This document shows positions 21,209 to 51,078 of a stretch of DNA of 64,000 nucleotides, piece by piece. Within the stretch, counting starts at the first letter, position 1, and every line of letters begins with the position of its first letter. Source of the stretch: Bacillota bacterium (lineage in GTDB: Bacteria; Bacillota_I; Bacilli_A; RF39; UBA660). The notes under the pieces were generated by a model. It ran no database searches. It saw only the letters and a list, made by a program, of their open reading frames with translations, and was not told where the DNA came from. Position numbers and translations under genes: made by a program. The DNA is taken from the NCBI GenBank assembly GCA_023430885.1, contig JAEYYH010000032.1, positions 19,279 to 83,278 on the forward strand, written 5' to 3'.

Positions 21209-23530
21209 TTATACATAAGTATAATTTTCTATTGATTTTATATTTACTTTATTATTACCATCTATTACTTCGCTAATTATAATACTTTCAAAAACATCAC
21301 GTATTATTTTATCTATTTTACGGGCACCATACTCTTTGTAATTAGATTTACTTATTATCTCATCTATTACTTTTTTATCGTAATTAACTTTAATATCTTT
21401 TTTAAGATATTTTTCTTTTATTTTTTGTAGTTTTTCAGTAATTATTTTATTTATAGCCTTTATATCTAAATAATTAAAAGATATTGTGTCATCTATACGA
21501 TTAATAAAGGATGTTGAAAATGATTCTTTTTGTTTTGTTAATAAATTATTTTCATCTTTTATAAAGCCAATTGGGTTATTTTCAAATCCTACATTAGTAG
21601 TCATTATAATAATTACATTATTAAAAAATATCTCACGTCCAGTAGAATCCTTAATTTTACTATCTTCAAGTATCTGAAAGAAAAGGTTTAATACATCATG
21701 ATGGGCTTTTTCTATTTCATCTAGTATTAGAACAGTATTAGGCTTATTTCTTATATCATCTAGTATGTTATGATTATCACTATAACCAACATAACCAGGA
21801 GGAGCTCCTACTATTTTACTTATAGAATGTGGTTCCCTATACTCACTCATATCAAGTTTAACTACGTTCTTTTTACCAACCATATATTCTCCAAATAATG
21901 TAGCCAGGTATGTTTTTCCCACACCAGAAGGTCCTGAAAATAAGAATGAATAGCATTTATTGTCTTCCTTCAAGCCTAATTTAATTCTTTTGCCTATTCT
22001 TACAATTTGATTAATCGCATACTGCTGTCCAATAATATTTTCTTTTAGTTTTGATTCTAGTTTATTAATACTTTTGGTATCAGTAGATATAATTTCATAT
22101 ACTGGCACTTTAGTACGAGTTGAAATGACTTTGGCAACATCTTCTTTGTTTACTTTATTTAGTGTCTTTTTCTTATTTAGTTTTAATTCTGTTAAATTTA
22201 TCTTATTTTGGATTAAATTTTCTTTATTTTTAAGTTCCTTCGCTGATACATAATCATCATCTAAAATGCTTCTTCTTTTGTCTAATTTAACTGTTTCAAC
22301 TTCTAGTAATAAGTCGTTATATTCTTTAAGCAATTTATTTTCTTTTAAACTAGCCTTAGCACAAACTTCGTCAAGTATATCAATTGCTTTATCTGGTTGC
22401 TTTCGATCGTAAATGTATTTCTCTGATAACTCAATTATAAGATCTATTATTTCATCACTTAATCTAACCATATGATAATTCTCATATATTGGTTTTAATT
22501 TTAGTAATATCTTTTTTGTATCCTCTTTACTTGGAGACTCTATAAATACTTTTTGAAATCTTCGCTCTAAGGCAGCATCATTTTCAATATATTTTTTATA
22601 TTCTTCAGTAGTAGTTGCTCCAATACATTTTAATTTATTTCTAGCTAGAGATGGTTTAAATATGTTTGATGCATCTATGGCTCCTTCAGCACCGCCGGCG
22701 CCTACTAAAGTATGAATTTCATCTATAAAAAGAATTATTTCCTCATTATCCTCTACTTCTTTTAATATTTTTTTTAGACGTTCTTCAAATTCGCCACGAT
22801 ATTTTGTTCCTGCTACAGTACTTGCCATATCGACACTTATAATTCTTTTATTTTTAAGACTATTTGGTACTTGCTTATTTACTATACGTTTGCTAAGTTC
22901 CTCTACTATAGCTGTTTTTCCTACTCCAGCATCTCCAATTAATAATGGATTATTCTTTGTCCTACGCATAAGAATTTCAATAACCCTATTTATTTCTTCT
23001 TCTCTACCTATTACTGGATCTAATTCGTTATTTGAAGCCTTTTTATTTAAATCGATTCCTATTTCTTCTAGTAAAAGTTTTTTACTCTTTTTCTTTTTAT
23101 CTACTTTATTTGTGTAAAATTCCTTATATAAACTATCTATATCAACTTCCATTGATAAAAGTATCCTTATTGCAATACCTTCACCCTCATCTAGTAAGTT
23201 TAAAAATAAGTGTTCTATCATAACTTCACTATTTGAATCTTTACTATCAACAATAGAGTTTTCAATAATTCTTCTAAGCATAGGTGTATATAAGAACCAT
23301 TCACTTTGCTTGCTACCTACTCCTATAATACTTATTATCTCTTTTTTAACTTTTTCATAGTCTATATCAAATTCTGTCAGTTTTTTGCTAACATTATTTT
23401 TTCCCTTTAGTATAGCAAGTAAAAGATGTTCACTTCCTATATAGGGATGCTTTAAATTACTCATCTCTTCTTTGGCAGTTACTATAACTATTCTTGCTTC
23501 TTCTGAAAAGTTACCAAACATAATAATCAT
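21209..23530 (-). CDS. ClpC/ClpE-like class III AAA+ chaperone (two nucleotide-binding domains)
   Basis: 773 aa; Clp N-domain repeat at N-terminus, Walker A GDAGVGKTAIVE and second GPSGVGKTYLA, coiled-coil middle domain. Confidence 0.85.
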   Translation of the reverse strand: MIIMFGNFSEEARIVIVTAKEEMSNLKHPYIGSEHLLLAILKGKNNVSKKLTEFDIDYEKVKKEIISIIGVGSKQSEWFLYTPMLRRIIENSIVDSKDSNSEVMIEHLFLNLLDEGEGIAIRILLSMEVDIDSLYKEFYTNKVDKKKKSKKLLLEEIGIDLNKKASNNELDPVIGREEEINRVIEILMRRTKNNPLLIGDAGVGKTAIVEELSKRIVNKQVPNSLKNKRIISVDMASTVAGTKYRGEFEERLKKILKEVEDNEEIILFIDEIHTLVGAGGAEGAIDASNIFKPSLARNKLKCIGATTTEEYKKYIENDAALERRFQKVFIESPSKEDTKKILLKLKPIYENYHMVRLSDEIIDLIIELSEKYIYDRKQPDKAIDILDEVCAKASLKENKLLKEYNDLLLEVETVKLDKRRSILDDDYVSAKELKNKENLIQNKINLTELKLNKKKTLNKVNKEDVAKVISTRTKVPVYEIISTDTKSINKLESKLKENIIGQQYAINQIVRIGKRIKLGLKEDNKCYSFLFSGPSGVGKTYLATLFGEYMVGKKNVVKLDMSEYREPHSISKIVGAPPGYVGYSDNHNILDDIRNKPNTVLILDEIEKAHHDVLNLFFQILEDSKIKDSTGREIFFNNVIIIMTTNVGFENNPIGFIKDENNLLTKQKESFSTSFINRIDDTISFNYLDIKAINKIITEKLQKIKEKYLKKDIKVNYDKKVIDEIISKSNYKEYGARKIDKIIRDVFESIIISEVIDGNNKVNIKSIENYTYV

Positions 23531-30705: not shown

Positions 30706-31782
30706 TTATTTAATCATACCATTTGATAGCAATATATATAGTATACAAAATGCACCGTATATAATTGTAAGCAGGCAAATGAATACTATACTTGTAAAAC
30801 CGTTATATTTTTTATTAAGATCCTTCATAGTTAATGCTTTAACTTTTGGCTGAACTTCTAAAGTTTCTGGACCTTTTTGAATTTCTTGTTGTTTTTGCAT
30901 TAGTCTTCTTTTTTCTACAATTCTTTTTAATATTACTTTTTGATCATCAGTTAGCGAATCGAATCTGTTATTTAATGTGAATTCAAGTTCATAATCATCC
31001 ATTTGTTCAAAAATTTGTTCAGCGGGATTTTCTACTGTTACAGCTGTTTCAATTCCATTGTCATTAATTGCTTGGACATCTTCTGAAACTGTTTCTACGC
31101 CCTTCTCATCAGCTTTTCTAATTTCCATCTGCCCTAAAGTATTAAGATGAGTATAATATGTTTCACCAGTATCTCTATTAATATATATATTACGTTTTGT
31201 ATCTGCAACAAAATTATTTATATCCGTTTCTTGCATATGAATAATAGAAGCAAACTGTCTTCTTTCCTCCGGTGTTAAATCACGTTTATCAATATCAACT
31301 GTTGATACTAAGTTAGCTTCTTCTTTTTCTTTTTGCATTGCATCAATTATTTCTTCTCTATTTTGGACACCATTTGTAGTTCTATAATCCATGCTTGAGT
31401 TTTGCTTATCTTGAAATTGAGTTACAAAGTCATCTTTACTCATATTATCATCAAGTACTGTATAAGTATCATCTGGATTTTCTACCTTTATATATTCTTT
31501 ATCATCCACTTTAAAACCAGTTACATTATCTAAATTAAGACTTGATGTATTAACTTTAGTCTTATCATAATAATCTAAAATTATTGTAGCTATCTTATTT
31601 AAATCTTCAACGTTATGCTCTATTCCATAAGATTCTAAACTTCTTAACATTTCAGAATTATTTGCAACCATCTCCGGAATATTTTTTAAATATTGAGCTA
31701 ATGCCTCTTTACTTTCAAATTCACCATTATTAATTCTGCCTTTAATATCATCAATAAAATTTTCGTCATAAAATTCACTCAT
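30706..31782 (-). CDS. hypothetical C-terminally membrane-anchored protein
   Basis: 358-aa acidic soluble region followed by a single C-terminal TM helix. Confidence 0.4.
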   Translation of the reverse strand: MSEFYDENFIDDIKGRINNGEFESKEALAQYLKNIPEMVANNSEMLRSLESYGIEHNVEDLNKIATIILDYYDKTKVNTSSLNLDNVTGFKVDDKEYIKVENPDDTYTVLDDNMSKDDFVTQFQDKQNSSMDYRTTNGVQNREEIIDAMQKEKEEANLVSTVDIDKRDLTPEERRQFASIIHMQETDINNFVADTKRNIYINRDTGETYYTHLNTLGQMEIRKADEKGVETVSEDVQAINDNGIETAVTVENPAEQIFEQMDDYELEFTLNNRFDSLTDDQKVILKRIVEKRRLMQKQQEIQKGPETLEVQPKVKALTMKDLNKKYNGFTSIVFICLLTIIYGAFCILYILLSNGMIK

Positions 31783-32058: not shown

Positions 32059-32691
32059 ATGCGTATACTCAAAAAAGCAAGATTTGTTTTAGTATTAATT
32101 TCTTTTTCTGTATGTCTTGGTTTAATGAGTAGTACTTATTCAAGATATGTTGCAGGTACCACTAGTAATATTGAAGTACTATTTGCTAAATGGCAAATAC
32201 TAGTTAACAACACTGATATTACAAGTAATACAAGTTCTTCGATAACATTTGTACCCGTTATTGAAGAAAATAACTATGTTGAAGCTAATACTGTTGCACC
32301 TTCTTCAAAAGGATACTTTGATATAGCCGTTGATCCTAGTAACGTAGGAGTTTCATTTAAATATACAATTAATTTAGCAGTAGCAAATGAAAATATGCCT
32401 GACTTGATGATTACAAAATATTCAATTATTCCTTCTACTTATGTTGAAGGAGATCCACTTGAAGTTACTAACTTAACTGATAACACTATAACAAACACAT
32501 TAAATTTTGATAAAAATATTACGTCATTTAAATTCACACCTTTTACTATCAGAGTCTACTTTGAATGGTACGAAGGTACAGGTGAAACAATGACTGATGT
32601 TGAAGATACAGCTGCTGGATTATCTGCTGTTACTGATAATACAAAATTTCAAATGACCGCCAATATTAATTTCGAACAAATCTTTGAATAA
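32059..32691 (+). CDS. small secreted protein with SipW-cognate-like signal peptide (possible TasA/camelysin-like)
   Basis: 210 aa; only plus-strand gene; N-terminal h-region then STYSRYVAGTT; RBS aaaggggtctaaagtATG. Confidence 0.45.
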   Translation: MRILKKARFVLVLISFSVCLGLMSSTYSRYVAGTTSNIEVLFAKWQILVNNTDITSNTSSSITFVPVIEENNYVEANTVAPSSKGYFDIAVDPSNVGVSFKYTINLAVANENMPDLMITKYSIIPSTYVEGDPLEVTNLTDNTITNTLNFDKNITSFKFTPFTIRVYFEWYEGTGETMTDVEDTAAGLSAVTDNTKFQMTANINFEQIFE

Positions 32692-32791: not shown

Positions 32792-34021
32792 TTACAAGTT
32801 TGTTTTTGGTGCTATTATTACTGGTATTACATTACAACTTGTTGTTTTAGCTTCGCCATACATTTTAGAATTAATTTCATCAATTTTTTTAACTGCAAAG
32901 CCGTTATTACTATTATATTCATTACTTGTCCAATAACAGTTAGCTGAAGAGATATAATTAAATTTTTCATTTGAGAAATTATAATGACCATTTGAACTAA
33001 CTGCTTTAGCAATTTCTGTATTCATACGAGTACCATAATTTAATTTTCCTATAATTAAATCAGATATATTATCTCTAATTAAAGTTGATTCAATTACATC
33101 TTTTGAAGTTATTTTTAATAAATCTTCAACCGTTAAGGCTCTTGTCCCTACCGTCCATCCACTTGTTACGGACGACAGTGTCATAGCATAATCATTAAAA
33201 CTACTACTTAAGTAAGTATTTTTGACATTTGGTAACAAAGTAACTGTATCATCACCCAATGTGTTATTCGTATCTATTACGTATGTTGTAAGACAGGTTG
33301 TACTAATTTCTGTACACGCTTCATTATTTACAACATCATATAAAATAACGTCACCTAAATCATATTTAGGATCACTGGTTGTATTAGATTCTATGTATTG
33401 TTCAGCTTTTACACTAATTACAATTTGAATTGATGGTTTAATCTGATAATTCGCATCATTATTTTTTTTTGTTATTTCACTCTGTTCAAATTTATAGGCT
33501 TCTGTTCCCCATAAACTGTCTAGAGAATCAATACCAGAATCTAAAGGCCAAGATACGGAAACCTCAAATGAACTTTCCTCACCTTTAGCTAAAATATAAT
33601 TTTTACTTAAATTAATATTAATATGAAATGGATAATCGTGTGATAATACATCTTCAACAGATTCAGAAGTTGTTGCCGTATCATCTATTACATAATTATC
33701 GGCTTCATCGCCTAAAATTCTAGCAGAAACAATTGAATAACTAAGCTGAGCATCAGAATCACCCAAATTTTTAATGTTGACTAGTTCATCCACTATATCC
33801 ATTCCTGGATAAATATCAGATAAAGATATAACGATATCATTAGAAACCGGTTGACCATCTTTATCCAATTCTATATACCAAGCTTTAACACCTATTTCAG
33901 TAGAAACACTTGATAAACCACTATAAGCAAACCAAGCAAGTGTTACAGATATAAATGAAATTACTATAAAGGTTACAGACATTATATTTAATCTTAAATA
34001 TAATTTATGCTTTTTTTCCAA
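32792..34021 (-). CDS. secreted TasA-like protein with SipW-cognate signal peptide
   Basis: 409 aa; signal VISFISVTLAWFAYSG; segment IYPGMDIVDELVNIKNLGDSDAQLSY resembles the TasA/camelysin N-terminal PGD...N-G-S block; directly downstream of the sipW-like gene (sipW-tasA arrangement). Confidence 0.5.
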   Translation of the reverse strand: MEKKHKLYLRLNIMSVTFIVISFISVTLAWFAYSGLSSVSTEIGVKAWYIELDKDGQPVSNDIVISLSDIYPGMDIVDELVNIKNLGDSDAQLSYSIVSARILGDEADNYVIDDTATTSESVEDVLSHDYPFHININLSKNYILAKGEESSFEVSVSWPLDSGIDSLDSLWGTEAYKFEQSEITKKNNDANYQIKPSIQIVISVKAEQYIESNTTSDPKYDLGDVILYDVVNNEACTEISTTCLTTYVIDTNNTLGDDTVTLLPNVKNTYLSSSFNDYAMTLSSVTSGWTVGTRALTVEDLLKITSKDVIESTLIRDNISDLIIGKLNYGTRMNTEIAKAVSSNGHYNFSNEKFNYISSANCYWTSNEYNSNNGFAVKKIDEINSKMYGEAKTTSCNVIPVIIAPKTNL

Positions 34022-34066: not shown

Positions 34067-34651
34067 CTAATTACTACTAATTTTTTTTCTTCTCTCGTCT
34101 TCTTTTTCTAGCATCGTTGAAAGTATTTCAGATCCTATAATGAAAAGCAAAGGAAGTATTATAAATAAATAAAATCCTATAGTTGTGCCAACAATTCGAT
34201 AAATTATTGAAAGTATAATTGATCTATAAATAACAACGCCATATATCTGGCTTTCAGAAATAGTAGGATCTTCAAATAAGTTTGCTAATCCTTTTGTTTG
34301 GAATAGATATTTTCCATCTTCATCAGTTTTAATACTAACAACTTCATGGGTAATAACTTTATCTTTGAAATCACCAGCTGTTCCTAGATAACTAACTGCA
34401 TCACCAACTTTAATTGTTGATGGATCAACTTCTTTTGAAATTAACACATCTCCAATCTTATACTTGGGCTCCATACTTCCTGAAATTACTGTAAACATTC
34501 TATAATTGAAAAAAGATATTTTATTGTCACTGAAGCGTTGCAAACATACAACAATTATAAATCCAACAAGTATTACAACAAACATTATTTGTGCTATAGT
34601 TGCGACAATTTTATATGCTTTGCTGTTTTTAATTTCCATTAATTTTTTCAT
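34067..34651 (-). CDS. sipW: signal peptidase I, archaeal/ER type (SipW-like)
   Basis: 194 aa; TM1, catalytic VISGSMEPKYKIGD (Ser) and ITHEVV (His), C-terminal second TM typical of SipW. Confidence 0.75.
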   Translation of the reverse strand: MKKLMEIKNSKAYKIVATIAQIMFVVILVGFIIVVCLQRFSDNKISFFNYRMFTVISGSMEPKYKIGDVLISKEVDPSTIKVGDAVSYLGTAGDFKDKVITHEVVSIKTDEDGKYLFQTKGLANLFEDPTISESQIYGVVIYRSIILSIIYRIVGTTIGFYLFIILPLLFIIGSEILSTMLEKEDERRKKISSN

Positions 34652-34660
34652 ATAAATAAC

Positions 34661-35794
34661 CTACAAATAATTTTGAGTCCTTTCTAAATATTCGTCCATT
34701 GCAGACTGAAATTTCTTTTTAATATCAGTACTGCCAATTACTCTTTTTTCTTTTTCATTTTTTATTTCACTAGTTATCATAGCAATTATTTCTTCATCTG
34801 TTATTTTAATTCCACAATTTAGTAATAAAGAAACAGCTCTATGTATTTCTTTTTTTACCATTATAACAGCATATTTTGATAACTTGTCTTTTTGTTCTCT
34901 TTTAGATGAGCTTATTGAATCAAAGACACAATAATCTATCAAGAAAGATTCATCCAAAATTCCTTTTAGGACATCGTTTCCTGTAGTGTCTAAACCATCT
35001 TTAGAACCATCAGTATCTTCATAATCATAAGTTTGTAAGAAGTCCCATAATTTCATAGCAATTTGAAAATTAGGATTTTTTAAAATCATATTAGTTTTCT
35101 TAATTGGAGAAACTACAAATGCAACATGTGCTTTTTCTAAAGATTTTAACATTTCGCTTCTTTTCCAGCTAGCAATGTAATCTTTCATTTTTTTTACTCT
35201 TTTTTTAAGATCATCTAATTCTTTTTGAAAATCATTTTCTTTGCTTCCTTTTGGCATTTCTTTTGAACTTATTTTAAGTTCAACATTAACTTTTTCATAA
35301 CCATTATTAGTAGAAGCAGCATATTCTAAAACTTTATCATTTTTTGTTTTAAAATTTTCTAATGCTACTTCCTTTCTCATAATAAATCTTAACATATTGT
35401 CAATTAAAGTATAAATAAATCTATTTTCATATGTGTTAAATGTTTCTTCATGATGCTCGATTAATATTTTTGATGGACGAACTTCATTAGTAACTTTATC
35501 TATTTTTTCAATAAAATGAGTGTGCTTAGATAAGTCTTTTACACTTGCTACAGTAATTTTTCGAGCTTTCTCTATTTTCACTACTTCTTCTTCTTTAATA
35601 AGAGCCACTTTTGGGTTTCTAACAATATTATCAATATATGGGCAAGAAAATTCAATCTCATTTACCCAGTCGAAAGACATGGAATCATTAGTAATTTCGG
35701 ATTTAAAAGACATATCCGAACTTACATTTTGCATAAACAGTTCGCTTTTTTCTGCTAATTTTTCATCACTAGGAAATTTTTTGGCTCTAGCCAT
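34661..35794 (-). CDS. hypothetical cytoplasmic protein, partner of McrB-like NTPase
   Basis: 377 aa, KE-rich, no TM; 16 bp downstream of 35811..37340. Confidence 0.4.
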   Translation of the reverse strand: MARAKKFPSDEKLAEKSELFMQNVSSDMSFKSEITNDSMSFDWVNEIEFSCPYIDNIVRNPKVALIKEEEVVKIEKARKITVASVKDLSKHTHFIEKIDKVTNEVRPSKILIEHHEETFNTYENRFIYTLIDNMLRFIMRKEVALENFKTKNDKVLEYAASTNNGYEKVNVELKISSKEMPKGSKENDFQKELDDLKKRVKKMKDYIASWKRSEMLKSLEKAHVAFVVSPIKKTNMILKNPNFQIAMKLWDFLQTYDYEDTDGSKDGLDTTGNDVLKGILDESFLIDYCVFDSISSSKREQKDKLSKYAVIMVKKEIHRAVSLLLNCGIKITDEEIIAMITSEIKNEKEKRVIGSTDIKKKFQSAMDEYLERTQNYL

Positions 35795-35810
35795 ATATAA
35801 TCACCACTAT

Positions 35811-37340
35811 CTATACAGACTTTTTAATTCTTTCTAAGTATTCAATACATTCCTTCATATTGTCATCGCCAAATTCTTTTTTTAAATAGGCAATGAAAGG
35901 ATCTATTTCATCACGAATTAATAATATATTTAATTGATCAAACTTACGGAAAATTTTCTTAGCAATAAAGTAATCGATACCATCAACTTCTTTACCACCA
36001 CAAGCAACATAAACTGGTACAAACGTATTTAATTGTTTCATAATACGATTACCAAAAGCTACTCTGAAATGTTTGATAACATAATCATCCATTAATCTAA
36101 TTTTTTCTAAATTTTTATCAGAAACCTTTTTGTTTTCAACTGCTGCTGCAAACAAGGATTCAAGATAACTTGAATTAAGATCTATAGCATCTTGTTCTCT
36201 ACATTTAAAAGGCTCTATTTTGGTATTAATATCAATAGGCATTGCACGGTCATAAACTTTATCAGTAACCATAAATGTTGAATCATCATTATTAATTGTA
36301 CCAATATACCATAAGTTACCAGGCAATTTTAATTTTCCCTCTTTTATACGAACAGGGTCACTAGGCCATGAGTTAGTAACTAACTCAATAATCCATTCTT
36401 CCCTAGAAGGCATTTCTAGAATAGATAACATTTCAGCAAAATAATACTCAACACGAGCGATGTTCATTTCATCCAAAATGATTGTATGTACATCATCATC
36501 AAGTCCTGATATATATAATTCCGCTAATACATCAGTCTCATTAAACTTTTTTGTAAATTCATTGAAATATCCTAATAATTCAGTTTTATCACGCCAAGAA
36601 GGCTCTACTGATGCTATACAAGAATCTTTTTTTACAAACTTTCCCCAAGCATATGCAAGTGAAGTTTTACCTGTTCCTGATATACCTTGTAAAATTACTA
36701 GCTTACCGCAAGCTAAGCCTGCAAAGAACGCTCTTAAAAGTGAAGCATCATAATATAAATGTAACTGACTAGCAGAATAACATCTAAAATTATCTAACAT
36801 TTCATCTAATGTAAAATTATTACCATAATTTTTAACCTTAAGTGTCTTGAATTTTTGATCTATTTTATCAAGTTTAGGAAATCTAATGTCACCAACATTT
36901 TCCTGTTTTTTATCTTCTTCTTTAGGCTCTTCTTCTGGATTTTCTGCATCATTAGGATTTAATCCTAATTGAGAAACTTTCATAGCCATAATTTCATTTT
37001 TTTCTTTCATTAATTTCTTTACTTGGCTATCTAAATCAGCAATTTCGTCTAATAAGTCTTCTTGATTCAATTTATTTTTTCTAAATCTTATTAACTTTCT
37101 AAGACTAAATAAAATGATAAATACAATTAAACCCAATATAATAACTAGAGTGGCTATAACTGAACCAACTAGTAGCCACTCTGATCCTTTAAAACTATCT
37201 TGATAACTATTTATTATTTTCATATATTCTTTGTAGTTAATCATTTGGGTTAAGCCATTAACAAAACCTTTAATTATTAAAAGCACCCCATCAAAGAATA
37301 TTGAAATAAACTCGTAGAAAAATCTTAAAAAAGTATTCAT
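35811..37340 (-). CDS. membrane-anchored McrB-like (AAA_5 family) NTPase
   Basis: 509 aa; two N-terminal TM helices, coiled-coil/acidic linker, Walker A GISGTGKTS, Walker B IILDEMNIARVEYYF (McrB DEiNRa-like), GTINNDDSTF...DRAM sensor region. Confidence 0.6.
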   Translation of the reverse strand: MNTFLRFFYEFISIFFDGVLLIIKGFVNGLTQMINYKEYMKIINSYQDSFKGSEWLLVGSVIATLVIILGLIVFIILFSLRKLIRFRKNKLNQEDLLDEIADLDSQVKKLMKEKNEIMAMKVSQLGLNPNDAENPEEEPKEEDKKQENVGDIRFPKLDKIDQKFKTLKVKNYGNNFTLDEMLDNFRCYSASQLHLYYDASLLRAFFAGLACGKLVILQGISGTGKTSLAYAWGKFVKKDSCIASVEPSWRDKTELLGYFNEFTKKFNETDVLAELYISGLDDDVHTIILDEMNIARVEYYFAEMLSILEMPSREEWIIELVTNSWPSDPVRIKEGKLKLPGNLWYIGTINNDDSTFMVTDKVYDRAMPIDINTKIEPFKCREQDAIDLNSSYLESLFAAAVENKKVSDKNLEKIRLMDDYVIKHFRVAFGNRIMKQLNTFVPVYVACGGKEVDGIDYFIAKKIFRKFDQLNILLIRDEIDPFIAYLKKEFGDDNMKECIEYLERIKKSV

Positions 37341-39592
37341 TCTTGTTCCCCCCTGAAATCACCAATTTTGTCAACTATATCTTCATAAATAACATTATCC
37401 AAAAGTTCATCTGGAATATATGAAATCACACTTGCCATATTTGGTATTTTTTTATTAATAAATACATAATCAGCAATATATAAATCACCACGATTTTTTT
37501 CTTTAATTGTTGTTTCTTTATTAAATACTAAAGCAAATTTATAACCCATCTTTTTAATTCTCTTTAAAAATTGTTTGTTTATTAATAAGTCTTCAAATGT
37601 TGTTAAAATCAGAACATTATCTTTAGCATATTTGTCATCAATAACTCTTAATAACTTTTCAAACTTTTTCTCTTTAGCATATAAACTTTTAGGAATATAT
37701 AAAATATATTTTCTATTAAAATTAGCTGAAACCATATCTTTTATTAATTGCATTGATAATAAATTTAATAGTACTGATAACTTATCTTCAGCAACAACGC
37801 CTTCGGTATAAGTTTTATCAATAACATAATCACTATAAACTTTACTAAAAGAAATATTATGTTCAAGTTCTAATCCGTACATATCTTTCTTATTACTTAA
37901 TTTATTAAATTTTAAATTAAACATATTAGTTTCTAGTTTTTGTAAAAAATATCCAAATATATCATTATATTTTTTTTGGATCTGTCCAATTTTAGCAACT
38001 ATTTGTGCTTCTTTTTGAATATCCCAATCTTTATAAAATTTTGCTATCTCTTTTTTATAAAATTCATTTCTAACCTTAATTTCTTCTATAGAATCTTTAG
38101 CACTCTCTAAATTAGCAATTAATATAAAGATATTATTATAAGTATCCACAATTTCATTATATCTCTTGTTACTACCTTTATAATTACTAATTAGTTCGTT
38201 TGCAACTTTATTTATAACTTTTTTATTTTTTAAAACTGAACTTTTTCCTGTAGACTCGATATCTTTATCACCAAAGTAATTATAGTATTTAGCATTGATG
38301 TATGTATTAATAAATATATTTTTAACTGTTATTTCTTTAGTACGAATTTTTTCATCAACTAAGATATCTATTAACTCATTTATCTCTTCTTTTTTTATAA
38401 ACATTGATGTTTCAATAATATTTTTGTGATTACCTAGTTTACTCTTTATTGATTCTAAGTTTATTTTTGTTAGAGTTTCATTATCTTCAACTATTGGTTC
38501 TTCTTCTTTTTCAGAATTCAAATCAGCATTCTTTTTTTGTTTTTTATCTTTTTGCTCAGATACTTTCATTTCATTTCTAGCGATTTCTAGTAAAGTGTCG
38601 CCTATTTCAGATGCATCAACTGGAATAACTCTAAATAATGATGTTTTATCTAAATCGTCCTCAATATCTTCTTCTTCCTCTTTTTGTGGTGCAACTTTAT
38701 ATTTATCATCAACTTCGTTAGAATCAACTGAAATAACTCTAAAAATGGATGTTTTTTCTAATTCTTCTTCTTTATGAATTTCTTCTTCAGACTTTTGAAC
38801 TGAATGTATTAACTCATCTTCTTCTTTCTCAGAATTAGCGGATACAACTTTGAAAAGTGTATTTTCTTTTTGAGCTTCAATTTTCTTTTCTTCATATTTT
38901 TTAGCATGAGCTTTTTTATATTCTTCTAAACTTTGGATTTTACCACGATGTTTATTTATATATTTAATAACTTTTTTCCTAATATTCTTAAATAATATTC
39001 CGCCTTTTTTTACTAAAGATTCAAAGATCAAATACATATTTTCTTCTTTAATATCTTCACCTTTAGCTTTTTCTGCATCTATTTTATTCTTTTTGACTGC
39101 CATATTAAATAAGAATAAAGTAATAATAAGAGTTATCAAAACACCTGGATTAAATAATGTTTTTCTAAGAATACCAAAATTACCTAGTATTTTTACTACT
39201 TTACCTACAATTTGACTTTGATCTATTGGGTCATCTTTTGCATTATTAGCATCACCCTTAGTAATATAAGTCCCATTGTAAACTTCGATAATTCTGTGTG
39301 TTATATATTCTTTATCTAATCTATAAGTTACTATATCATCAAGTTTAACTTTTTGTGTTAGTTTTACAACTATCCAATCACCGGCATTAATTGTATCCTC
39401 CATACTTCCTGTTTGGACTTCAAATATAGAATATCCAAAAAAATCAGTATAATCATTACCAAGAAGTTTAGTTTGAACACCGGTATATATAGAGACAATT
39501 AAAATAACACCAAATATAAAAATCAATATATTTAATAAAAAATTAATAATTTTCTCAATAAAATTCATATTTTTTAAATTCATATTTATCAT
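37337..39592 (-). CDS. SipW-type signal peptidase domain fused to long cytoplasmic extension (tandem repeats and degenerate EAL-like C-terminal region)
   Basis: 751 aa; TM1, QTGSMEDTINAGDWIVVK (Ser) and ITHRIIEV (His) matching canonical SipW at 34067, TM2, then ~580 aa KE-rich region with three T(S/L)(I/L)F(R/K)V(I/V)... repeats; last ~200 aa align loosely to EAL domain blocks but lack DDFGTG. Confidence 0.55.
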   Translation of the reverse strand: MINMNLKNMNFIEKIINFLLNILIFIFGVILIVSIYTGVQTKLLGNDYTDFFGYSIFEVQTGSMEDTINAGDWIVVKLTQKVKLDDIVTYRLDKEYITHRIIEVYNGTYITKGDANNAKDDPIDQSQIVGKVVKILGNFGILRKTLFNPGVLITLIITLFLFNMAVKKNKIDAEKAKGEDIKEENMYLIFESLVKKGGILFKNIRKKVIKYINKHRGKIQSLEEYKKAHAKKYEEKKIEAQKENTLFKVVSANSEKEEDELIHSVQKSEEEIHKEEELEKTSIFRVISVDSNEVDDKYKVAPQKEEEEDIEDDLDKTSLFRVIPVDASEIGDTLLEIARNEMKVSEQKDKKQKKNADLNSEKEEEPIVEDNETLTKINLESIKSKLGNHKNIIETSMFIKKEEINELIDILVDEKIRTKEITVKNIFINTYINAKYYNYFGDKDIESTGKSSVLKNKKVINKVANELISNYKGSNKRYNEIVDTYNNIFILIANLESAKDSIEEIKVRNEFYKKEIAKFYKDWDIQKEAQIVAKIGQIQKKYNDIFGYFLQKLETNMFNLKFNKLSNKKDMYGLELEHNISFSKVYSDYVIDKTYTEGVVAEDKLSVLLNLLSMQLIKDMVSANFNRKYILYIPKSLYAKEKKFEKLLRVIDDKYAKDNVLILTTFEDLLINKQFLKRIKKMGYKFALVFNKETTIKEKNRGDLYIADYVFINKKIPNMASVISYIPDELLDNVIYEDIVDKIGDFRGEQE
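38590..38880 (-). repeat. three internal protein repeats (about 35 aa each) within the SipW-fusion gene
   Basis: TLFKVVSANSEKEEDE / TSIFRVISVDSNEVDD / TSLFRVIPVDASEIGD followed by acidic spacers. Confidence 0.5.
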
Positions 39593-39845
39593 TCCTACTC
39601 CATTTTTCGACCATATTCTATCTTATATAATTTTATCACATTAAAATACTATTTACAATAATATGAAACTTTTTTCTAATAAAAAATCAAATGCAAAAAT
39701 GAGCTTTATTTTAAAAGAAATTACTAAAAAACTATAGTTATTTTATTTTAATTAAAGTATAAACTTAAATTAATAAAGACACATAATCATTGATCATGTG
39801 TCTTTAACTTATATTATTAATTATTTTTATAAATACTGGCCTTGA

Positions 39846-40379
39846 TTATTTTATATAATCTTCTTTACCATATTTAATTTCAACAACTAGAGCATAAAAT
39901 TCATAAATAAATATTAAGAAACTTGGTACAAGAACTATAAATAAGAAACCCCATTTAGATTCTATTACAGATAAATAAGTACCTATATTGTTATAAACTT
40001 TACTAGCTTCACCTACTACAAATTTTGTTGAATATGTAGAACCATTTTCATAAGTAATTGCTTCATCAGCTTCATGAACTTCGCCTACTTTACCTAAATC
40101 AATACTTACGCTACCATCGCTAGCTACTTTATAAACAAATATTTCATCATCAACAGCGATTTCAGTTATTTTTCTTGATTCAACAAGTACTAAATCACCT
40201 TTTTTAAAATTATCCGAAGTAATATCGCCTTTTATTAAAATTAGAGAAGTGTCCCCAAATTGAGTAACTCCATAGTCATTATAATTTAATAGTAATACTG
40301 TCATTGCTATTGCAAAGCCAAAGAATACTACTCCTAAAACTCCTATAACAATTTTTTTAATGATCTCTAGTATCTTCAT
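39846..40379 (-). CDS. SipW-like membrane protein lacking catalytic Ser/His (possible inactive paralog)
   Basis: 177 aa with the same TM - beta-rich domain - TM topology and GD..V.V spacing as SipW, but SGSMEP replaced by FGDTSL and no ITH motif. Confidence 0.3.
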   Translation of the reverse strand: MKILEIIKKIVIGVLGVVFFGFAIAMTVLLLNYNDYGVTQFGDTSLILIKGDITSDNFKKGDLVLVESRKITEIAVDDEIFVYKVASDGSVSIDLGKVGEVHEADEAITYENGSTYSTKFVVGEASKVYNNIGTYLSVIESKWGFLFIVLVPSFLIFIYEFYALVVEIKYGKEDYIK

Positions 40380-40465: not shown

Positions 40466-41392
40466 TTAACAACCATCTGTTTCTTCAAGAGTAAATTCAC
40501 TAGCATTATACGTTGTATTAAAGCTTTTACTATAAAACATATAGCTTAAACTATCTTTCGCGTTGATATTAAACTTAATCTCATTTATGTAATTATTTGC
40601 GTCTGTATTAGCAGTACTATACTCGCTACTATCTGCATTTATTATTAATTTACTAGCGTCCCAAGTTACTTTAACGCATTTCGTAGTTGAGGAAGGATTA
40701 GTAACAATTAGTCTGTCATAATTAGAATAATTTTTATAAGATAAAGTTACATCATTACTTTTAGTACCGGCTTTATGAAGTGTAAAATCTCCACTTAAGG
40801 TTTTACTGTATGGTGTTGTGCTAGATACTGTAACATTAACTACGACATCATTAATTTCATAATTAGTATCGGTTAAAACAACATCAAAATAAAGGTTCTT
40901 TGTTACAATTTGATTAACCCAATCATACCCGTTTAGTTCACAATCTGTTTTATTAAAAGAGCTAACATCTACTTGATCACCAGTTTTATTACTACATGCT
41001 TGCAAACTAGATAAAACTCCATCCTGTGAATTTAAATCAGTACCATTCATATGGCATTCAGCATAAGCTGCTGCATCTCCTGTTACAGTACATGTGGCAG
41101 TATAACCTATATCATAATCTGTTATAACACTTTGATTAAGACTATTATTAATACTAAAGTTAATACTGCCACCATCCCACTGACTATTTGCATTCTTAAC
41201 TACAGTTCCTGAAGCTAATTGTTCACTGCTAAAGTAAAAACCTTTAGATTTCAAGTAATAATTCCAAACAGAATTTGAAATATATTTTGCAGAAGTAATG
41301 CCATAAATAACTGCTATGCTACAAACTAACAATATAGATATTAAAATTATATGTTTTTTCTTACTTTTCATAAACATCATCCTAATCTTCAA
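40466..41392 (-). CDS. secreted Ser/Thr/Asn-rich protein with signal anchor (SipW-cognate-like)
   Basis: 308 aa; h-region then GITSAKYISNS; C-terminal Cys. Confidence 0.4.
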   Translation of the reverse strand: MKIRMMFMKSKKKHIILISILLVCSIAVIYGITSAKYISNSVWNYYLKSKGFYFSSEQLASGTVVKNANSQWDGGSINFSINNSLNQSVITDYDIGYTATCTVTGDAAAYAECHMNGTDLNSQDGVLSSLQACSNKTGDQVDVSSFNKTDCELNGYDWVNQIVTKNLYFDVVLTDTNYEINDVVVNVTVSSTTPYSKTLSGDFTLHKAGTKSNDVTLSYKNYSNYDRLIVTNPSSTTKCVKVTWDASKLIINADSSEYSTANTDANNYINEIKFNINAKDSLSYMFYSKSFNTTYNASEFTLEETDGC

Positions 41393-41933
41393 GTTTTTGC
41401 CAACTTCTAATCTCTATATTAATGTAATCCACCAAATCAGAATATGATGTAGAATTATATTCATTTGGGAAATCTATTTTTAATATGTAATTATCAAGTT
41501 CTTCAGTACTATGGCCTATTTCCTCTGTTGGGGTTGTACACACTAACTCATTTGATGAGTTTCGTGTATACGTTTCATCACAAGTCATTATTAATTCCTC
41601 AGTCTCACCATTCAATTTATAAAGTTTAATTGCAAGTGGAACTAAATGATATGTTTTGACTGTCATTTGATATTCAGCAGTAATGTTACTTTTACTACCA
41701 GAAGCATTATTGCTTACAGCAAAGGTATATTCTTTACTATCCCCAGGATTTAAATCAATTAAAGGTAACTGAATTTGATTTGAACTTTCGGCATTAAATA
41801 TAAATTTTGCTATACTTTGATCACCTGAACTAAGTGAAGTATTTGAATGGAAAATAGAATATGTTATACCAAAACAGAACACTATTGATATTAATATAAA
41901 TAGAGTTATTAAAATTTTGTATTTTAATTTCAT
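41382..41933 (-). CDS. TasA/camelysin-like secreted protein
   Basis: 183 aa; signal FCFGITYSIFHS; IDLNPGDSKEYTFAVSNNASGS parallels B. subtilis TasA NLKPGDKLTKDFQFENNGS. Confidence 0.5.
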   Translation of the reverse strand: MKLKYKILITLFILISIVFCFGITYSIFHSNTSLSSGDQSIAKFIFNAESSNQIQLPLIDLNPGDSKEYTFAVSNNASGSKSNITAEYQMTVKTYHLVPLAIKLYKLNGETEELIMTCDETYTRNSSNELVCTTPTEEIGHSTEELDNYILKIDFPNEYNSTSYSDLVDYINIEIRSWQKLED

Positions 41934-41941
41934 ATCTTTAC

Positions 41942-44900
41942 CTATTTAACAATAAAATGTTTTTCTATTGTTCCTATCTTTTTAGTATCATCATATAATT
42001 CAAAAACAAATTTATACCCTGTATTTTCAAAACTAGCTGTTATCAAGTTTAATCCAAAACTGTTGTTTTCAGTTGGAGTAGCCGAAACATAATAAACATT
42101 TTGTGAAACTGCATTTAAATTATCGCTAACATAAGAAGCTAAATCAACAATTGTATAATCTTGATTATATGCTGTTAAATTATTTTTCTTATATAATGAA
42201 ACTCTTATATTTGGATTAATTAATAAACCATTTTGAGAAATATTAAACAAAACATTTACTGATTCACTTGTTTTATTTATTATACGATTTGTATCGTTCA
42301 TACTAGCGTTGAAACCATATATAGTATTCAAACTTGTTCTTGTTACATTAACTGGAATAAGTATATTTTGCGCACCTAGTTCGTCACAATATTCACCATC
42401 AATAGAAGTATAATTTGAAACTTTCAAATAATATGTTCCTTCTGGTAAATCATCATTATTGGCATATGTTGTTACTGTAAGAGTTTTAGTAACATCAGCA
42501 ATTCCATTATTTAGATTAATATGAATCATATTATCTGATTCAGGATAATATGTAGCATTTCCTATTTTAAATATAAAATTTTTCAAATGTGATTTTTCAA
42601 TAGTATTGCCATTGCTATCAACAAGCTTTATTAATAAACCAATTTGTTTATCTTCAAAAGTTGTGTCAACTATTTTAAAATCATTTATAAACTTATAATT
42701 TAAACCACTAGTTAAATTGATATTAGTAGTAGAATTACTATTAAATTCTATTGCATTTCCACTATAATCAGTAGTTAATGATAAAGTAGCCTTTGTATCA
42801 GTAGCATTTACTGTAGAGTATATATTAAATTTATTAATTGTATTATATAAAGTTGGTCTAACATTAATATCACTTGGGCTACGTAGTTCCATAGATAAAC
42901 TAACATCATTATAATTTACGGAAATGTCGGTATCAGCAAGATCCATAACAATTGTGAAATCCTCTGTAACTACACCATTATTATAATAAGTTGTTTCAGT
43001 ATAATAATTATTAACTGTTGCTGTCCCTATTTCTTTAAATAAAGTAAATGGATATGTTGCTTTTTTAATACAATTTAAATCTTCAACGCCACAACTACTA
43101 TTATAATTATAAATATCTGTAGCAGTTGTTATTTTATATTCATAAACTTTTTTTGTAGCATTATCTATTAAGGTTAGTTTTGTTCCTAATGGAAGAAGCA
43201 TATTTGCAACTAAGTTATGAGTATAGTCTGTTAAATTAGTTGCTTCTGAATTTGAATAACTAAAGTCTATCGTAATAGTTGATTTATCAGTTATATAAGG
43301 ATCTGCATTTAAATAACTTGAAGAGTTTCTTCCAATTACTAAATTTGACTCAGTATAACCATCTAAATTAATATAGTCAGTATTTATGTAAGTAACATAA
43401 TCAAAACTATCCACTATTTTTATATATACAACTTGTTTGCCAGTATTTTGTATTAATATTTCATTAGAATATGTAGTCCATTTATCATTAGATAATGCAT
43501 CTAATTCTGCAGTATTTAGTGAATCATTAGTAATGTAATATTCAATACTTGATACTCCTGAAATCGCATCTGATGCATCTACTGTAATAGTTTTTTGTCT
43601 ATCAATATATATACCATCCAAATTTGATTTTAAACTTGTCCACTTATAATCATCAAGATTAACACTAGCTTTTACACCCGGCAAATCTAAAACTAATACA
43701 TCAGTATTTAAATATGTAACATTATTATCATAATCTACAACTTTAACATATATAACATAAACACCTTCTGTTGTTATTTGTTCAATATCACTATATGAAG
43801 TCCATGCTGTTATTTGAGATATTTCTGTACTTGTAAGTGGTGTACTAGAATTGCTAATATAATAATATTTTTCTTTAACAGGGTTTAATTCATCAGCATC
43901 TTCAATACTAAAAGTAATATTAGAAGTTAATCTTAAGTTATTTAATTCATAACTTAAATTATTCCATGAATATGCACTTACATTTATATTTGCTATTGGT
44001 TTATTAATATCATCAATAAACAATATTGGTAATGAATCAGTCTCATATATCCATGCATTTTCATTATTTGTTACGATGTCTTGAAAATCCACGAATTCAT
44101 TAAAATGTAGAACACTTATATCTACACTTTTTGTTTTCAAGTTATCTAAGGTAGTTAATACAAAATCACCATTTGTTACTCCGCCTTTTATAGCAGAAAC
44201 ACCATTAACATAATATGAATTGGTTATATTAACATTTGAATTATATATAGTTCCAATACTATAATCTGAAGCTGATGTATTAAATGTATTACTTATTGAA
44301 ATAGCACCGGTATTATTAGATGCAATACCAATTAAACCACCAAAATTTGTGGAAGTTATATAACCAGTATTATAACTTTTTTCTATATTAATATCATTAA
44401 TACTTTTTTCGATAATACCTACTAAACCACCGCTTATATAAGTACTTTTAATATTACCAGTATTATAAGATTGATTTACACTAGTTGAATTATTAGTAAC
44501 CCCTACTAAACCCCCACTAATTGAATAACCATATATAGAACCTTTATTTATTGTATTTTCTATTGTTGTATTGTTAGAAATTGCAACTATACCTGCAGAA
44601 ACTGCGTATTTATAGGCAATGTTATAACTTAAATTAGAGAAAGTCAATGTATCCCCTTCAGTTGCATTAGTATATGTCAAAACAGGCACATTATTTAGTA
44701 TATTAGTACCTAAATCAATTGAAAAGTTTCCGCCTGTTACTACTTGTCCATTTATAGTAATCGTAGCATCAGCACCATTTAAACCATCAATAACATAGTT
44801 ACCAGTAATTGATGTTGAAACAATCTCTGCACCAGTTAAAGGAATATTATTTGTTAAATCTATATAATTTGTTGTCTCATAATTTTGCATGTTTATTACA

Positions 44901-45640
44901 GGAGATGCTGGAGTACTACTAATATTCTTTGAGTCTAAAGTACTTTTACCAACTACATAACCATCAAATAAAATATTACTTAATGAAGCATTATTAGTTT
45001 TAGACGCAATACCTGCTGTTATTGTCCCACCATATATCATAGCATTTTCAACATATAAATTTTTAACTTCACCTTGTAAATTAGTAAATAGAGCTAATTC
45101 TTCACTAGTTTCATTAGTCATATATAAACCATATATTCTAAATGAATTACCATTAAAAATACCCTTAAAATTATTTAGTGAATTAAATAAATTAACTGTT
45201 CCTATTTCTGTACCAGTCATATCCACATTATCATAATATTTATTAGTATAAGGATTAACATAATATGTATGTCCGTCTAAAATATAGTTTATTTTATTAT
45301 TTTCATCATAATTAAATACGCCATTATTTATTACAATGTCGTTACTTAAAGTAAAATATGTATTATCGTAATCATTAGTTGCAAGCTGAGAATAAAAATA
45401 TGCTAACTCTGAACCTGAAGAGATTAAATATGGGTCACTAGATGAACCAGTACCACTTTTATAACTGCTAGCTACACTTCCATCCCATACAGGATTAGTT
45501 ATTAAAGTATTTCTATTTTTATATCTTGCTAAAGTTGGTATACCTACGGATAATATTAAAGCAAATATTAATATTAAAACCAAATAAGTAATTTTTTGAG
45601 TTTTTGATAATTTATTAATAAAATCTATTATTACTTTCAT
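41942..45640 (-). CDS. giant secreted surface protein with GLUG-motif repeats
   Basis: 1232 aa; signal anchor; repeated SGGLVG / FGGLIG blocks (GLUG motif), Asn/Thr/Tyr-rich beta-rich body; first gene of a four-gene operon. Confidence 0.55.
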   Translation of the reverse strand: MKVIIDFINKLSKTQKITYLVLILIFALILSVGIPTLARYKNRNTLITNPVWDGSVASSYKSGTGSSSDPYLISSGSELAYFYSQLATNDYDNTYFTLSNDIVINNGVFNYDENNKINYILDGHTYYVNPYTNKYYDNVDMTGTEIGTVNLFNSLNNFKGIFNGNSFRIYGLYMTNETSEELALFTNLQGEVKNLYVENAMIYGGTITAGIASKTNNASLSNILFDGYVVGKSTLDSKNISSTPASPVINMQNYETTNYIDLTNNIPLTGAEIVSTSITGNYVIDGLNGADATITINGQVVTGGNFSIDLGTNILNNVPVLTYTNATEGDTLTFSNLSYNIAYKYAVSAGIVAISNNTTIENTINKGSIYGYSISGGLVGVTNNSTSVNQSYNTGNIKSTYISGGLVGIIEKSINDINIEKSYNTGYITSTNFGGLIGIASNNTGAISISNTFNTSASDYSIGTIYNSNVNITNSYYVNGVSAIKGGVTNGDFVLTTLDNLKTKSVDISVLHFNEFVDFQDIVTNNENAWIYETDSLPILFIDDINKPIANINVSAYSWNNLSYELNNLRLTSNITFSIEDADELNPVKEKYYYISNSSTPLTSTEISQITAWTSYSDIEQITTEGVYVIYVKVVDYDNNVTYLNTDVLVLDLPGVKASVNLDDYKWTSLKSNLDGIYIDRQKTITVDASDAISGVSSIEYYITNDSLNTAELDALSNDKWTTYSNEILIQNTGKQVVYIKIVDSFDYVTYINTDYINLDGYTESNLVIGRNSSSYLNADPYITDKSTITIDFSYSNSEATNLTDYTHNLVANMLLPLGTKLTLIDNATKKVYEYKITTATDIYNYNSSCGVEDLNCIKKATYPFTLFKEIGTATVNNYYTETTYYNNGVVTEDFTIVMDLADTDISVNYNDVSLSMELRSPSDINVRPTLYNTINKFNIYSTVNATDTKATLSLTTDYSGNAIEFNSNSTTNINLTSGLNYKFINDFKIVDTTFEDKQIGLLIKLVDSNGNTIEKSHLKNFIFKIGNATYYPESDNMIHINLNNGIADVTKTLTVTTYANNDDLPEGTYYLKVSNYTSIDGEYCDELGAQNILIPVNVTRTSLNTIYGFNASMNDTNRIINKTSESVNVLFNISQNGLLINPNIRVSLYKKNNLTAYNQDYTIVDLASYVSDNLNAVSQNVYYVSATPTENNSFGLNLITASFENTGYKFVFELYDDTKKIGTIEKHFIVK

Positions 45641-50366: not shown

Positions 50367-50385
50367 AAATACATCTCTCTCTCTA

Positions 50386-51078
50386 TTATCCAACAAATTC
50401 AGAATTAAAATCCATGTGAATTTTAATTTCTCCTCCAAGAATGTTATCAGTGCATTCTGGATCAGTTCCTTCTAACCATAAGACTATTGTATATTTGTTT
50501 TTATCACCAGGTTTAAAGTCAACTACATGTTCATGAGCAATAAGGGTATCCGTTTCAAAAGCAACCGTTTCTTTTTCTGGATTCCCGTTACTAGACGCCT
50601 TAGCGTAGGTAATATAATTACCGTTCTTATATACTCTAATTCTTACAGCATCGTCAAGATTTTTTATAACATCATCAATAATTATTTCAGACCAATAATC
50701 AGATGGAGTATCGCCTAGATTTTCAATATAAAAAGTGTAGGCAACGTAATTATCACCGTTGTGAGATCCGCCTTCAAAATTGTCAATGTCTTCTGGAAGC
50801 CACTTATAGGAAATATTATCAAAGCTTTCAACAATTGGTGCATATAGCTCTGTTCTAAATACTTTATAGTTAGAATCATCATAAATAACAATATTATTTT
50901 CTAAATATAAGTTCCTATCTAGTGTAATACTGAAATTACCATTGTTGTAAATAACCCTAACAACAATGTATAAGATAAGTAACAATAGTGTGAAGAAAAG
51001 TAATACTAATTTAACAATTTTCGTTATTTTTTTCTTATGTTTTCTTTTGCCAGCTCTAGCTATAATTTCATTATTCAT
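50386..51078 (-). CDS. secreted/membrane-anchored 230-aa protein co-transcribed with paralog 2
   Basis: Basic n-region, TM, beta-rich body; shares promoter/leader architecture with paralog 3. Confidence 0.4.
   Translation of the reverse strand: MNNEIIARAGKRKHKKKITKIVKLVLLFFTLLLLILYIVVRVIYNNGNFSITLDRNLYLENNIVIYDDSNYKVFRTELYAPIVESFDNISYKWLPEDIDNFEGGSHNGDNYVAYTFYIENLGDTPSDYWSEIIIDDVIKNLDDAVRIRVYKNGNYITYAKASSNGNPEKETVAFETDTLIAHEHVVDFKPGDKNKYTIVLWLEGTDPECTDNILGGEIKIHMDFNSEFVG

Follow-up and report, generated by a model that had tools for sequence, protein, structure and literature searches.

Why should a relative of McrB, the motor subunit of a restriction system, be encoded between two genes for signal peptidases? 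The question is raised by a DNA stretch of 64,000 nucleotides (nt) from a member of the Bacillota (contig JAEYYH010000032.1, assembly GCA_023430885.1), which we call the window. On its minus strand, the gene for a McrB-like AAA+ nucleoside triphosphatase (NTPase) of 509 amino acids (aa) (35811-37340) follows the gene for a SipW-type signal peptidase with a long, predicted cytoplasmic extension (751 aa, 37337-39592), and it precedes the genes for a McrC-like partner (377 aa, 34661-35794) and for a stand-alone SipW-type signal peptidase (194 aa, 34067-34651). McrBC is the textbook example of a GTP-driven restriction motor. A first-pass annotation of this DNA had left two options for the pair, a module acting in SipW-dependent secretion or an embedded McrBC-like defence pair, and of these our analysis favours a module for SipW-dependent secretion or assembly. 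Judged from sequence, the pair most likely descends from a McrBC motor that gave up DNA restriction and became part of a locus for SipW-dependent surface fibres. We give a probability of roughly 60% to the view that the module serves the NTP-driven biogenesis of such fibres, be it their assembly or their export, and not restriction. The first-pass annotation had also held that the arrangement is not a described one; this is wrong, since Bell et al. (2024; PMC11090510) have named systems of this kind CoCoPALM.

The four genes are packed closely within an unbroken run of genes that, according to the list of open reading frames of the window, occupies the minus strand from 32.8 to 45.6 kb. Both reading frames of the McrBC-like pair were found with the positions and lengths first reported, and so were the 4-nt overlap and the 16-nt spacer: The TGA stop codon of the SipW fusion gene lies inside the ATGA with which the NTPase gene starts, downstream of a G-rich ribosome-binding site, the spacer between the NTPase gene and the gene for the partner contains GGTGA, and only 9 nt separate the latter from the next SipW gene. 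This arrangement points to tight translational coupling of the NTPase gene to its neighbours.

Several lines of evidence place the 509-aa protein in the McrB branch of the AAA+ NTPases and, within this branch, in the NxD clade. Its Walker A motif (GISGTGKTS, residues 219-227), its Walker B motif (ILDEMN, 288-293) and the GTINNDDS...YDRAM block (347-367), all of which had been read from the sequence in the first pass, are invariant in 23 homologues with 70-93% identity. The same is true for the sensor-1 Asn and for an Arg that aligns with the RRRF motif of McrB, both of which are intact, and the mean column identity of the alignment is 79%, membrane segment included. With its catalytic motifs invariant, the NTPase is apparently active. 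In the PDB, McrB of E. coli was the best and the only significant match (E 0.005 with the single sequence, 1.2e-5 with the family profile), and the alignment extends from Walker A through the Arg-rich strand. Moreover, the protein matches the PADLOC candidate model PDC-M26A (8e-33), a match that is limited to the NTPase core (two stretches in total, the best one covering profile positions 314-438 of 724) and that is shared by all 10 sampled relatives (493-869 aa). The proposed membership in AAA_5 holds at the level of the family only: The window NTPase itself has no match in Pfam at E<0.1, AAA_5 (PF07728) included, whereas 9 of 19 diverse relatives match this model, with a best E of 4.6e-8.

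The assignment to the NxD clade is based on the family rather than on the single protein. In the window, the sequence reads I-N350-N-D352-D-S, and NNDD alone can be read as NxxD as well as NxD; it is the family pattern that decides for NxD. The motif search located the motif in 54 of 150 representatives at 50% identity, and all 54 carry GT[AI]N-x-D-[DE]-ST: the x varies, the D does not, and D or E comes next, with Q in one case. In the family alignment, which reaches down to 30% identity, N350 and D352 do not vary. Since this family-wide N-x-D-(D/E) equals the signature that defines the clade in Bell et al., i. e. NxD instead of NxxD, mostly with E or a second D as the next residue (PMC11090510), we place the NTPase there.

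The N-terminal region of the NTPase differs from that of McrB. Of the two transmembrane (TM) helices and the coiled coil that had been proposed for it, one strong TM segment (around residues 50-87) and a charged, heptad-like stretch that resembles a coiled coil (79-121) are supported by the hydropathy profile and the sequence, whereas residues 4-30 form only a weaker hydrophobic segment. The basic patch RKLIRFRKNK directly follows the strong TM helix, and the coiled coil and the NTPase domain are thus predicted to be cytoplasmic. Further on there are an acidic linker, a conserved RFPKLxxID motif (153-161), the AAA+ core (about 195-405) and a conserved C-terminal domain. Residues 1-190 did not match any domain in Pfam or NCBIfam and consist instead of the hydrophobic helices, the coiled coil and the acidic linker. 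A predicted membrane anchor and a short coiled coil stand where McrB has its DNA-binding N-terminal domain. When 1.84 billion cluster representatives were searched with the NTPase, 715 clusters were found at E<=1e-30. Some of these relatives have about 500 aa and align from residue 1, others have 600-870 aa with long N-terminal regions, align only from residue 130-180 onward and share 35-45% identity with the window NTPase.

The 377-aa protein had been described as a soluble protein placed like McrC, and this view is supported by our analysis. It matches Pfam DUF2357 (PF09823) with residues 54-155 (E 1.5e-11, 44.5 bits against a cut-off of 23.3), and the hydropathy profile has no TM segment. 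The search for McrC-like and nuclease families that had been suggested for the partner thus returned the DUF2357 match, but none to PD-(D/E)xK: No nuclease family was detected in the partner in scans of Pfam, NCBIfam and PADLOC, nor in the best 120 of its 2859 homologues, which carry PF09823 only. The AlphaFold2 model of the partner is of modest confidence (mean predicted local distance difference test score 64.6). In this model, residues 241-377 are all helices except for one strand of four residues, and nothing resembles the alpha/beta fold of PD-(D/E)xK nucleases. A crude coiled-coil proxy marks a charged, coiled-coil-like helix at residues 186-222, of which the model has residues 186-210 as a helix. 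The model also contains one beta-hairpin, and the pore-inserting finger of McrC would, by analogy, be expected at its segments of low confidence (63-97 and 106-118). Taken together, the partner is predicted to be reduced to the McrB-activating DUF2357 domain, with no nuclease detectable in these searches. The nuclease-bearing partner of an embedded McrBC-like defence pair was thus not found, and the lack of a nuclease and the predicted all-helical C-terminal third weaken this idea. Longer partners occur in two related loci from genomes labelled as Oscillospiraceae or Clostridia (709 aa, L082 4247-6376; 451 aa, L083 1778-3133); in both, DUF2357 is the sole recognised domain.

The two peptidases that flank the pair are members of the SipW class. 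In the fusion protein, the peptidase with its two TM helices (residues 9-44 and 144-168 by hydropathy) comprises aa 1-170 (nt 39083-39592) and is followed by a charged, coiled-coil-like linker. It matches the signal peptidase I model TIGR02228 with 71.8 bits and Peptidase_S24 with 2.4e-7; the 194-aa protein reaches 74.5 bits with TIGR02228, for which the cut-off is 51.85. The catalytic motifs GSME and TH(E/R) align in both copies, and they read SGSMEP and THE in the 194-aa protein. Both score below the equivalog cut-off for Bacillus SipW (about 60 against 190 bits) and are therefore members of the SipW class rather than orthologues of B. subtilis SipW.

The C-terminal domain of the SipW fusion, of about 350 aa (nt 37337-38392), which we call fusC, is predicted to be the third conserved component of the module. 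Upstream genes were compared for 80 related loci. The NTPase gene is directly preceded by a match to fusC in 61 of them, usually a stand-alone protein of 315-355 aa, and by a SipW fusion or SipW gene in 25. In close relatives the preceding gene encodes a SipW fusion of 630-815 aa, and in most of the more distant loci a free-standing fusC (e. g. L022, L027, L052 and L081, in each case just upstream of position 10001). SipW carries one TM helix at its N-terminus and one at its C-terminus; the fusC extension should therefore be cytoplasmic, and through the fusion the peptidase would be physically joined to a cytoplasmic partner of the NTPase module. A profile built from 23 homologues of fusC found no significant relative in Pfam or the PDB. 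A degenerate EAL domain that had been suspected by eye in the last 120 or so residues of the fusion was rejected since the profile has no EAL match. Neither the SipW fusion nor the partner matched any PADLOC model.

The module is widespread, and its gene order is kept. The first-pass annotation had asked whether the SipW fusion, the NTPase and the 377-aa protein occur together elsewhere. Across 84 related loci, a McrC-like gene directly follows the NTPase gene in every case (84/84) and SipW lies downstream of the pair in 78/84; a fusC-like gene upstream completes the trio at the frequency given above. The order of McrB-like, McrC-like, SipW and a secreted protein of about 200 aa is maintained across the loci while the outer flanks are unrelated, and the identity of all cluster genes drops together, as expected for co-inheritance. 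Even in the most distant loci, which come from metagenome-assembled genomes labelled as Clostridia, SipW and proteins with an A-W-F signal motif border the pair. The NTPase has more than 8000 homologues, the best 120 with 69-99% identity, and a pattern scan with one genome per GTDB species confirmed a relative in at least 597 species-level genomes. The best 80 carrier genomes are all metagenome-assembled or binned; their labels are mostly Bacilli, Tenericutes, Mollicutes, Erysipelotrichaceae and Clostridia, with few outside the Bacillota.

The genomic setting is the core chromosome of a spore-forming member of the Bacillota of low G+C content that is known only from metagenomes. Around the cluster, the window encodes SpoVAC, SpoVAD, UvrA and a ClpB-like protein (12518-13947, 6511-9321 and 21209-23530, all on the minus strand) as well as a sigma factor and ABC exporters, and the G+C content is even along the window at about 27%. 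On the basis of this even composition and of the housekeeping neighbours, a mobile or defence-island setting was rejected. Complete chromosomes of only about 1.5 Mb retain the cluster, and identical NTPase sequences were found on 11 metagenome contigs.

The idea that the module acts on surface fibres comes from its secreted neighbours. Downstream of the 194-aa SipW, the minus strand encodes a secreted or membrane-anchored protein of 409 aa (32792-34021, TM helix 7-37), which is followed on the opposite strand by a convergent gene for a secreted protein of 210 aa (32059-32691, plus strand), a candidate fibre subunit. The two families are present in 72/84 and 63/84 loci, respectively. Across the 409-aa family, two motifs vary little or not at all, A-W-F-x-Y and YPGM...N-x-G. 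Its homologues in distant loci have only 190-270 aa, so that the conserved core should correspond to about the first 200 residues, and residues 220-409 or so (32792-33361) to a lineage-specific extension. The gene occupies the slot that tasA has after sipW in B. subtilis. The 210-aa protein has an invariant S-T-Y-S-R-Y at its TM helix, then a conserved unstructured segment (27-56) and a predicted beta-sandwich. Both proteins share their anatomy with three proteins of 1232, 183 and 308 aa that are encoded further upstream: Each of the five has one N-terminal TM helix followed by a short motif, which is T-L-A-W-F in the 409-aa, T-Y-S-R-Y in the 210-aa, T-Y-S-I-F in the 183-aa, T-S-A-K-Y in the 308-aa and T-L-A-R-Y in the 1232-aa protein. 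In distant loci, A-W-F and the variants S-W-F, A-W-M and G-W-M occur in several neighbours. We take these T-x-A-x-F/Y motifs to resemble the signal motif GT(F/W)A(Y/A)F of TasA and camelysin. By position and anatomy, it is a reasonable reading that the secreted neighbours are substrates of SipW which may form fibres.

The upstream part of the cluster may form a transcription unit of its own. A terminator-like hairpin on the minus strand (39774-39806; a 15-bp stem, then a T-rich tract) is found within the 253 nt that separate the SipW fusion gene from the next gene upstream. It may be a terminator or attenuator that divides the cluster into two transcription units, although it was found by a consensus scan only, which returned four sites against 2.3 expected. 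The second unit would then contain the genes for the SipW fusion, the NTPase, the partner, SipW and the 409-aa protein. In this AT-rich sequence, a promoter scan did not exceed the background given by shuffled DNA. The gene upstream of the hairpin (39846-40379, minus strand) encodes a SipW-like protein of 177 aa with TM segments at residues 1-34 and 138-168 by hydropathy. It aligns with both SipW copies, has Ile at the position of the catalytic Ser (KGDITS versus SGSMEP) and did not match the peptidase profiles of Pfam and NCBIfam, and is thus likely a pseudo-peptidase; homologues are present in 53/84 loci. The three predicted secreted proteins of the upstream unit (1232, 183 and 308 aa; 40466-45640, minus strand), in which T-x-[AS]-x-[YF] follows the TM helix, matched no Pfam or NCBIfam model, and their homologues are confined to closer relatives (36-40/84 loci).

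How could a McrBC-type motor contribute to the biogenesis of fibres? By analogy with E. coli McrBC, six NTPase subunits would form a ring under the membrane, and the McrC-like protein would insert into the pore of this ring as a shaft that stimulates hydrolysis. FusC could couple the ring to SipW. The hydrolysis of NTP, probably GTP, might then be transmitted via the coiled coils and the TM helices, and drive or gate the steps by which the adjacent membrane-anchored beta-sandwich proteins are cleaved, released, and polymerised or exported. The role of the module would be comparable to that of the PilB-type ATPases of type IV pili. It is tempting to go one step further and to regard the McrB-like ring, the nuclease-less shaft and fusC as an NTP-powered biogenesis machine for SipW-processed filaments of Gram-positive bacteria, and thus as a new pathway of pilus or fibre assembly in which a restriction motor was exapted for mechanical work on membrane proteins. 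This joint claim is tentative, and we hold it to be somewhat less likely than not.

A number of observations weigh against this explanation. None of the secreted proteins of the window matched Peptidase_M73 or TIGR04088/04090 in Pfam and NCBIfam at E<0.1. The secreted families gave sub-threshold signals only, with Peptidase_M73 (0.022 in 1/21 members) and with an archaeal bundling protein (2.4), as did one distant neighbour with TIGR04090, the BsaA family (0.0075). An hhalign comparison with a TasA sequence gave a probability of 1%, the PG...N-x-G motif being aligned nonetheless, and membership of the secreted neighbours in the TasA family found no significant sequence, profile, PDB or fold match. 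For the N-terminal region of the NTPase, homology to FtsB was not detected: there is no match to the Pfam DivIC/FtsB family, and hhalign with E. coli FtsB gave a probability of 0.8% over 9 columns, in what is a weak test. The TasA fibres of Bacillus are not known to need a cytoplasmic NTPase, and a requirement for energy is therefore not obvious. The closest characterised or predicted relatives of the pair, McrBC, CoCoNuT and PDC-M26, are all associated with defence. Finally, the ring, the McrC-like shaft and any contact with fusC or SipW are drawn entirely by analogy.

The most resilient of the other explanations, although an unlikely one, is a regulatory or quality-control switch: The NTPase, the McrC-like protein and fusC would sense a cytoplasmic or membrane cue and turn SipW on or off, or the complex would clear uncleaved substrates or remnants of signal peptides and time the production of fibres without any mechanical work. 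A peptidase that is directly fused to fusC, as in the window lineage, would suit allosteric control, and the cluster contains a catalytically dead paralogue of SipW. Known fibres of the TasA type, such as those of the tapA-sipW-tasA system, assemble without an NTPase. Moreover, McrB is by nature a GTPase that is turned on by McrC (PMC11090510). In the searches of Pfam, NCBIfam and the PDB, however, no sensor or ligand-binding domain was recognisable in the NTPase, the partner or fusC. The strong conservation of the NTPase, which includes the membrane segment, fits a part of a machine, yet it is compatible with a switch as well.

Still less probable is a defence at the level of the envelope. 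In this case, the whole cluster would be a device against phages or conjugation, in which the McrBC-derived sensor-motor answers infection and releases or remodels surface fibres, for example to mask receptors or to provide decoys. The kinship of the NTPase agrees with such a role, as its clade is sister to the CoCoNuT systems, which are predicted to be defensive (PMC11090510), and so does an integrase about 8.5 kb away in one locus. The match to the PADLOC defence-candidate model points in the same direction, but it covers the NTPase core only, and the partner has no match of this kind. Defence systems are typically patchy and fast-evolving, whereas the pair is syntenic in all 84 loci, 50-92% identical and present in hundreds of species, with the cluster set among housekeeping genes; moreover, an effector, be it a nuclease, HEPN, TIR or a pore-forming protein, was not detected. 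Finally, an ordinary McrBC-type restriction pair that became embedded in a secretion operon by chance is close to refuted: The McrB-type motifs and the DUF2357 partner do come in the canonical gene order, but there is neither a nuclease, of the PD-(D/E)xK type or another, nor a DNA-binding domain at the N-terminus, the NTPase is predicted to be membrane-anchored, the pair is apparently coupled in translation to SipW genes on both sides, and the linkage to SipW persists across genomes labelled as Bacilli and as Clostridia.

Some further genes of the window are of note. Two proteins of 505 and 569 aa (4807-6324 and 19444-21153, both on the minus strand) open with the N-terminal methylation motif of type IV pilins, and the first of them has GLUG motifs; a gene for a type IV pilus ATPase or platform protein was not found among the window ORFs (open reading frames) scanned. 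Two proteins of about 500 aa (48906-50438 and 51292-52779, minus strand) end in the bacterial surface Ig-like domain PF16403, and in three related loci (L002-L004) a similar gene lies upstream of the cluster, so that there may be a loose link of surface proteins to the cluster. An acidic protein of 358 aa (30706-31782, minus strand), encoded in the interval from the cluster to a TetR/ABC-exporter unit, has a single C-terminal TM helix, i. e. the topology of a tail-anchored protein; no family match and no homologue in the related loci was found for it.

If SipW-dependent fibre biogenesis is indeed the function of the module, it would clearly exemplify the recruitment of a defence motor, stripped of its DNA-binding and nuclease parts, to the biogenesis of the cell surface, and some SipW-dependent fibres would need cytoplasmic energy, unlike TasA. 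In any case, this branch of the McrB-like NTPases, predicted to be membrane-bound, is under strong purifying selection beside signal peptidases and secreted proteins in hundreds of gut- and rumen-associated species of the Bacillota. The candidate parts list comprises the NTPase, the DUF2357 partner, fusC, two SipW peptidases, one pseudo-SipW and two conserved putative substrates.

How does this module relate to the systems that are already known? With the type IV pili driven by PilB/PilC it would share, as a functional analogy only, a cytoplasmic hexameric NTPase at the membrane that is proposed to power the assembly of filaments. The ATPase family is unrelated, the prepilin peptidase of type IV pili is an aspartic enzyme whereas the peptidases studied here are Ser/His enzymes of the S26 family, and there is no homologue of the platform. 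The likeness to the tapA-sipW-tasA operon of B. subtilis and to sipW-bsaA of C. perfringens lies in the signal peptidase of the archaeal or endoplasmic reticulum type beside small secreted proteins, in the T-x-A-x-F/Y-like signal anchors, in the predicted beta-sandwich bodies and in a substrate-like gene right after sipW, while the secreted proteins of the window stay below significance against the TasA, camelysin and BsaA models. No McrBC-like NTPase is known from either of these operons. In C. perfringens, BsaA may, according to the model put forward for it, need type IV pilus-associated proteins to pass the peptidoglycan (PMC11580942).

The NTPase and its partner are closer to the McrBC-type systems. 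With E. coli McrBC (PDB 6HZ4, 6UT6, 7VSR), they share the AAA+ Walker motifs, the sensor-1 Asn in Nx(x)D, the Arg at RRRF, the McrB-activating DUF2357 domain and the order of the B gene before the C gene. In contrast to McrBC, the NTPase is predicted to be membrane-anchored, has NxD instead of NxxD throughout its family and carries no DNA-binding N-terminal domain, the partner lacks the PD-(D/E)xK nuclease, and the pair is part of a secretion or fibre operon. The CoCoNuT systems (CnuB/CnuC) belong to the same NxD branch, have coiled coils, and the nuclease of their McrC is often lost or inactivated (PMC11090510); the PDC-M26A match is common to the sampled relatives of the window NTPase. As described in that paper, however, CoCoNuTs are soluble, have long coiled coils and are tied to HEPN or other nucleases and to RNA-binding domains, whereas the system of the window has a TM anchor, a short coiled coil, no nuclease partner and a link to SipW. 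Of the two components of PDC-M26, only PDC-M26A was matched, by the NTPase.

Closest of all are the CoCoPALM systems, which Bell et al. named in eLife in their survey of about 34,000 McrBC systems and deferred to a later paper (PMC11090510). The paragraph devoted to them gives no mechanism, component list or distribution; it describes an NTPase fused to an FtsB-homologous domain (TM helix plus coiled coil), a neighbouring McrC homologue (DUF2357) that in most cases has a coiled coil, and an association with the signal peptidase family, and it ties the clade to pilus assembly (PMC11090510). In the literature that we searched, neither the later CoCoPALM paper nor any paper that names PDC-M26 was found. 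The locus of the window, from a member of the Bacillota, has the NxD NTPase with its N-terminal TM and coiled-coil region, the DUF2357 partner with a coiled-coil-like insert, and signal peptidases on both sides; only the FtsB homology was not reproduced for its NTPase. By these features, we regard it as a CoCoPALM-type module, a kind of system that is named in the passages of Bell et al. rather than characterised there (PMC11090510). The association of signal peptidases with a McrBC-like pair is thus already in the literature, and we infer the functional steps. To what those passages contain, our work adds the fusC component, the apparently nuclease-less partner and the conserved secreted neighbours with their predicted beta-sandwich, and, in addition, the carriage by at least 597 species, the gene order kept at 84 loci and the setting on the core chromosome.

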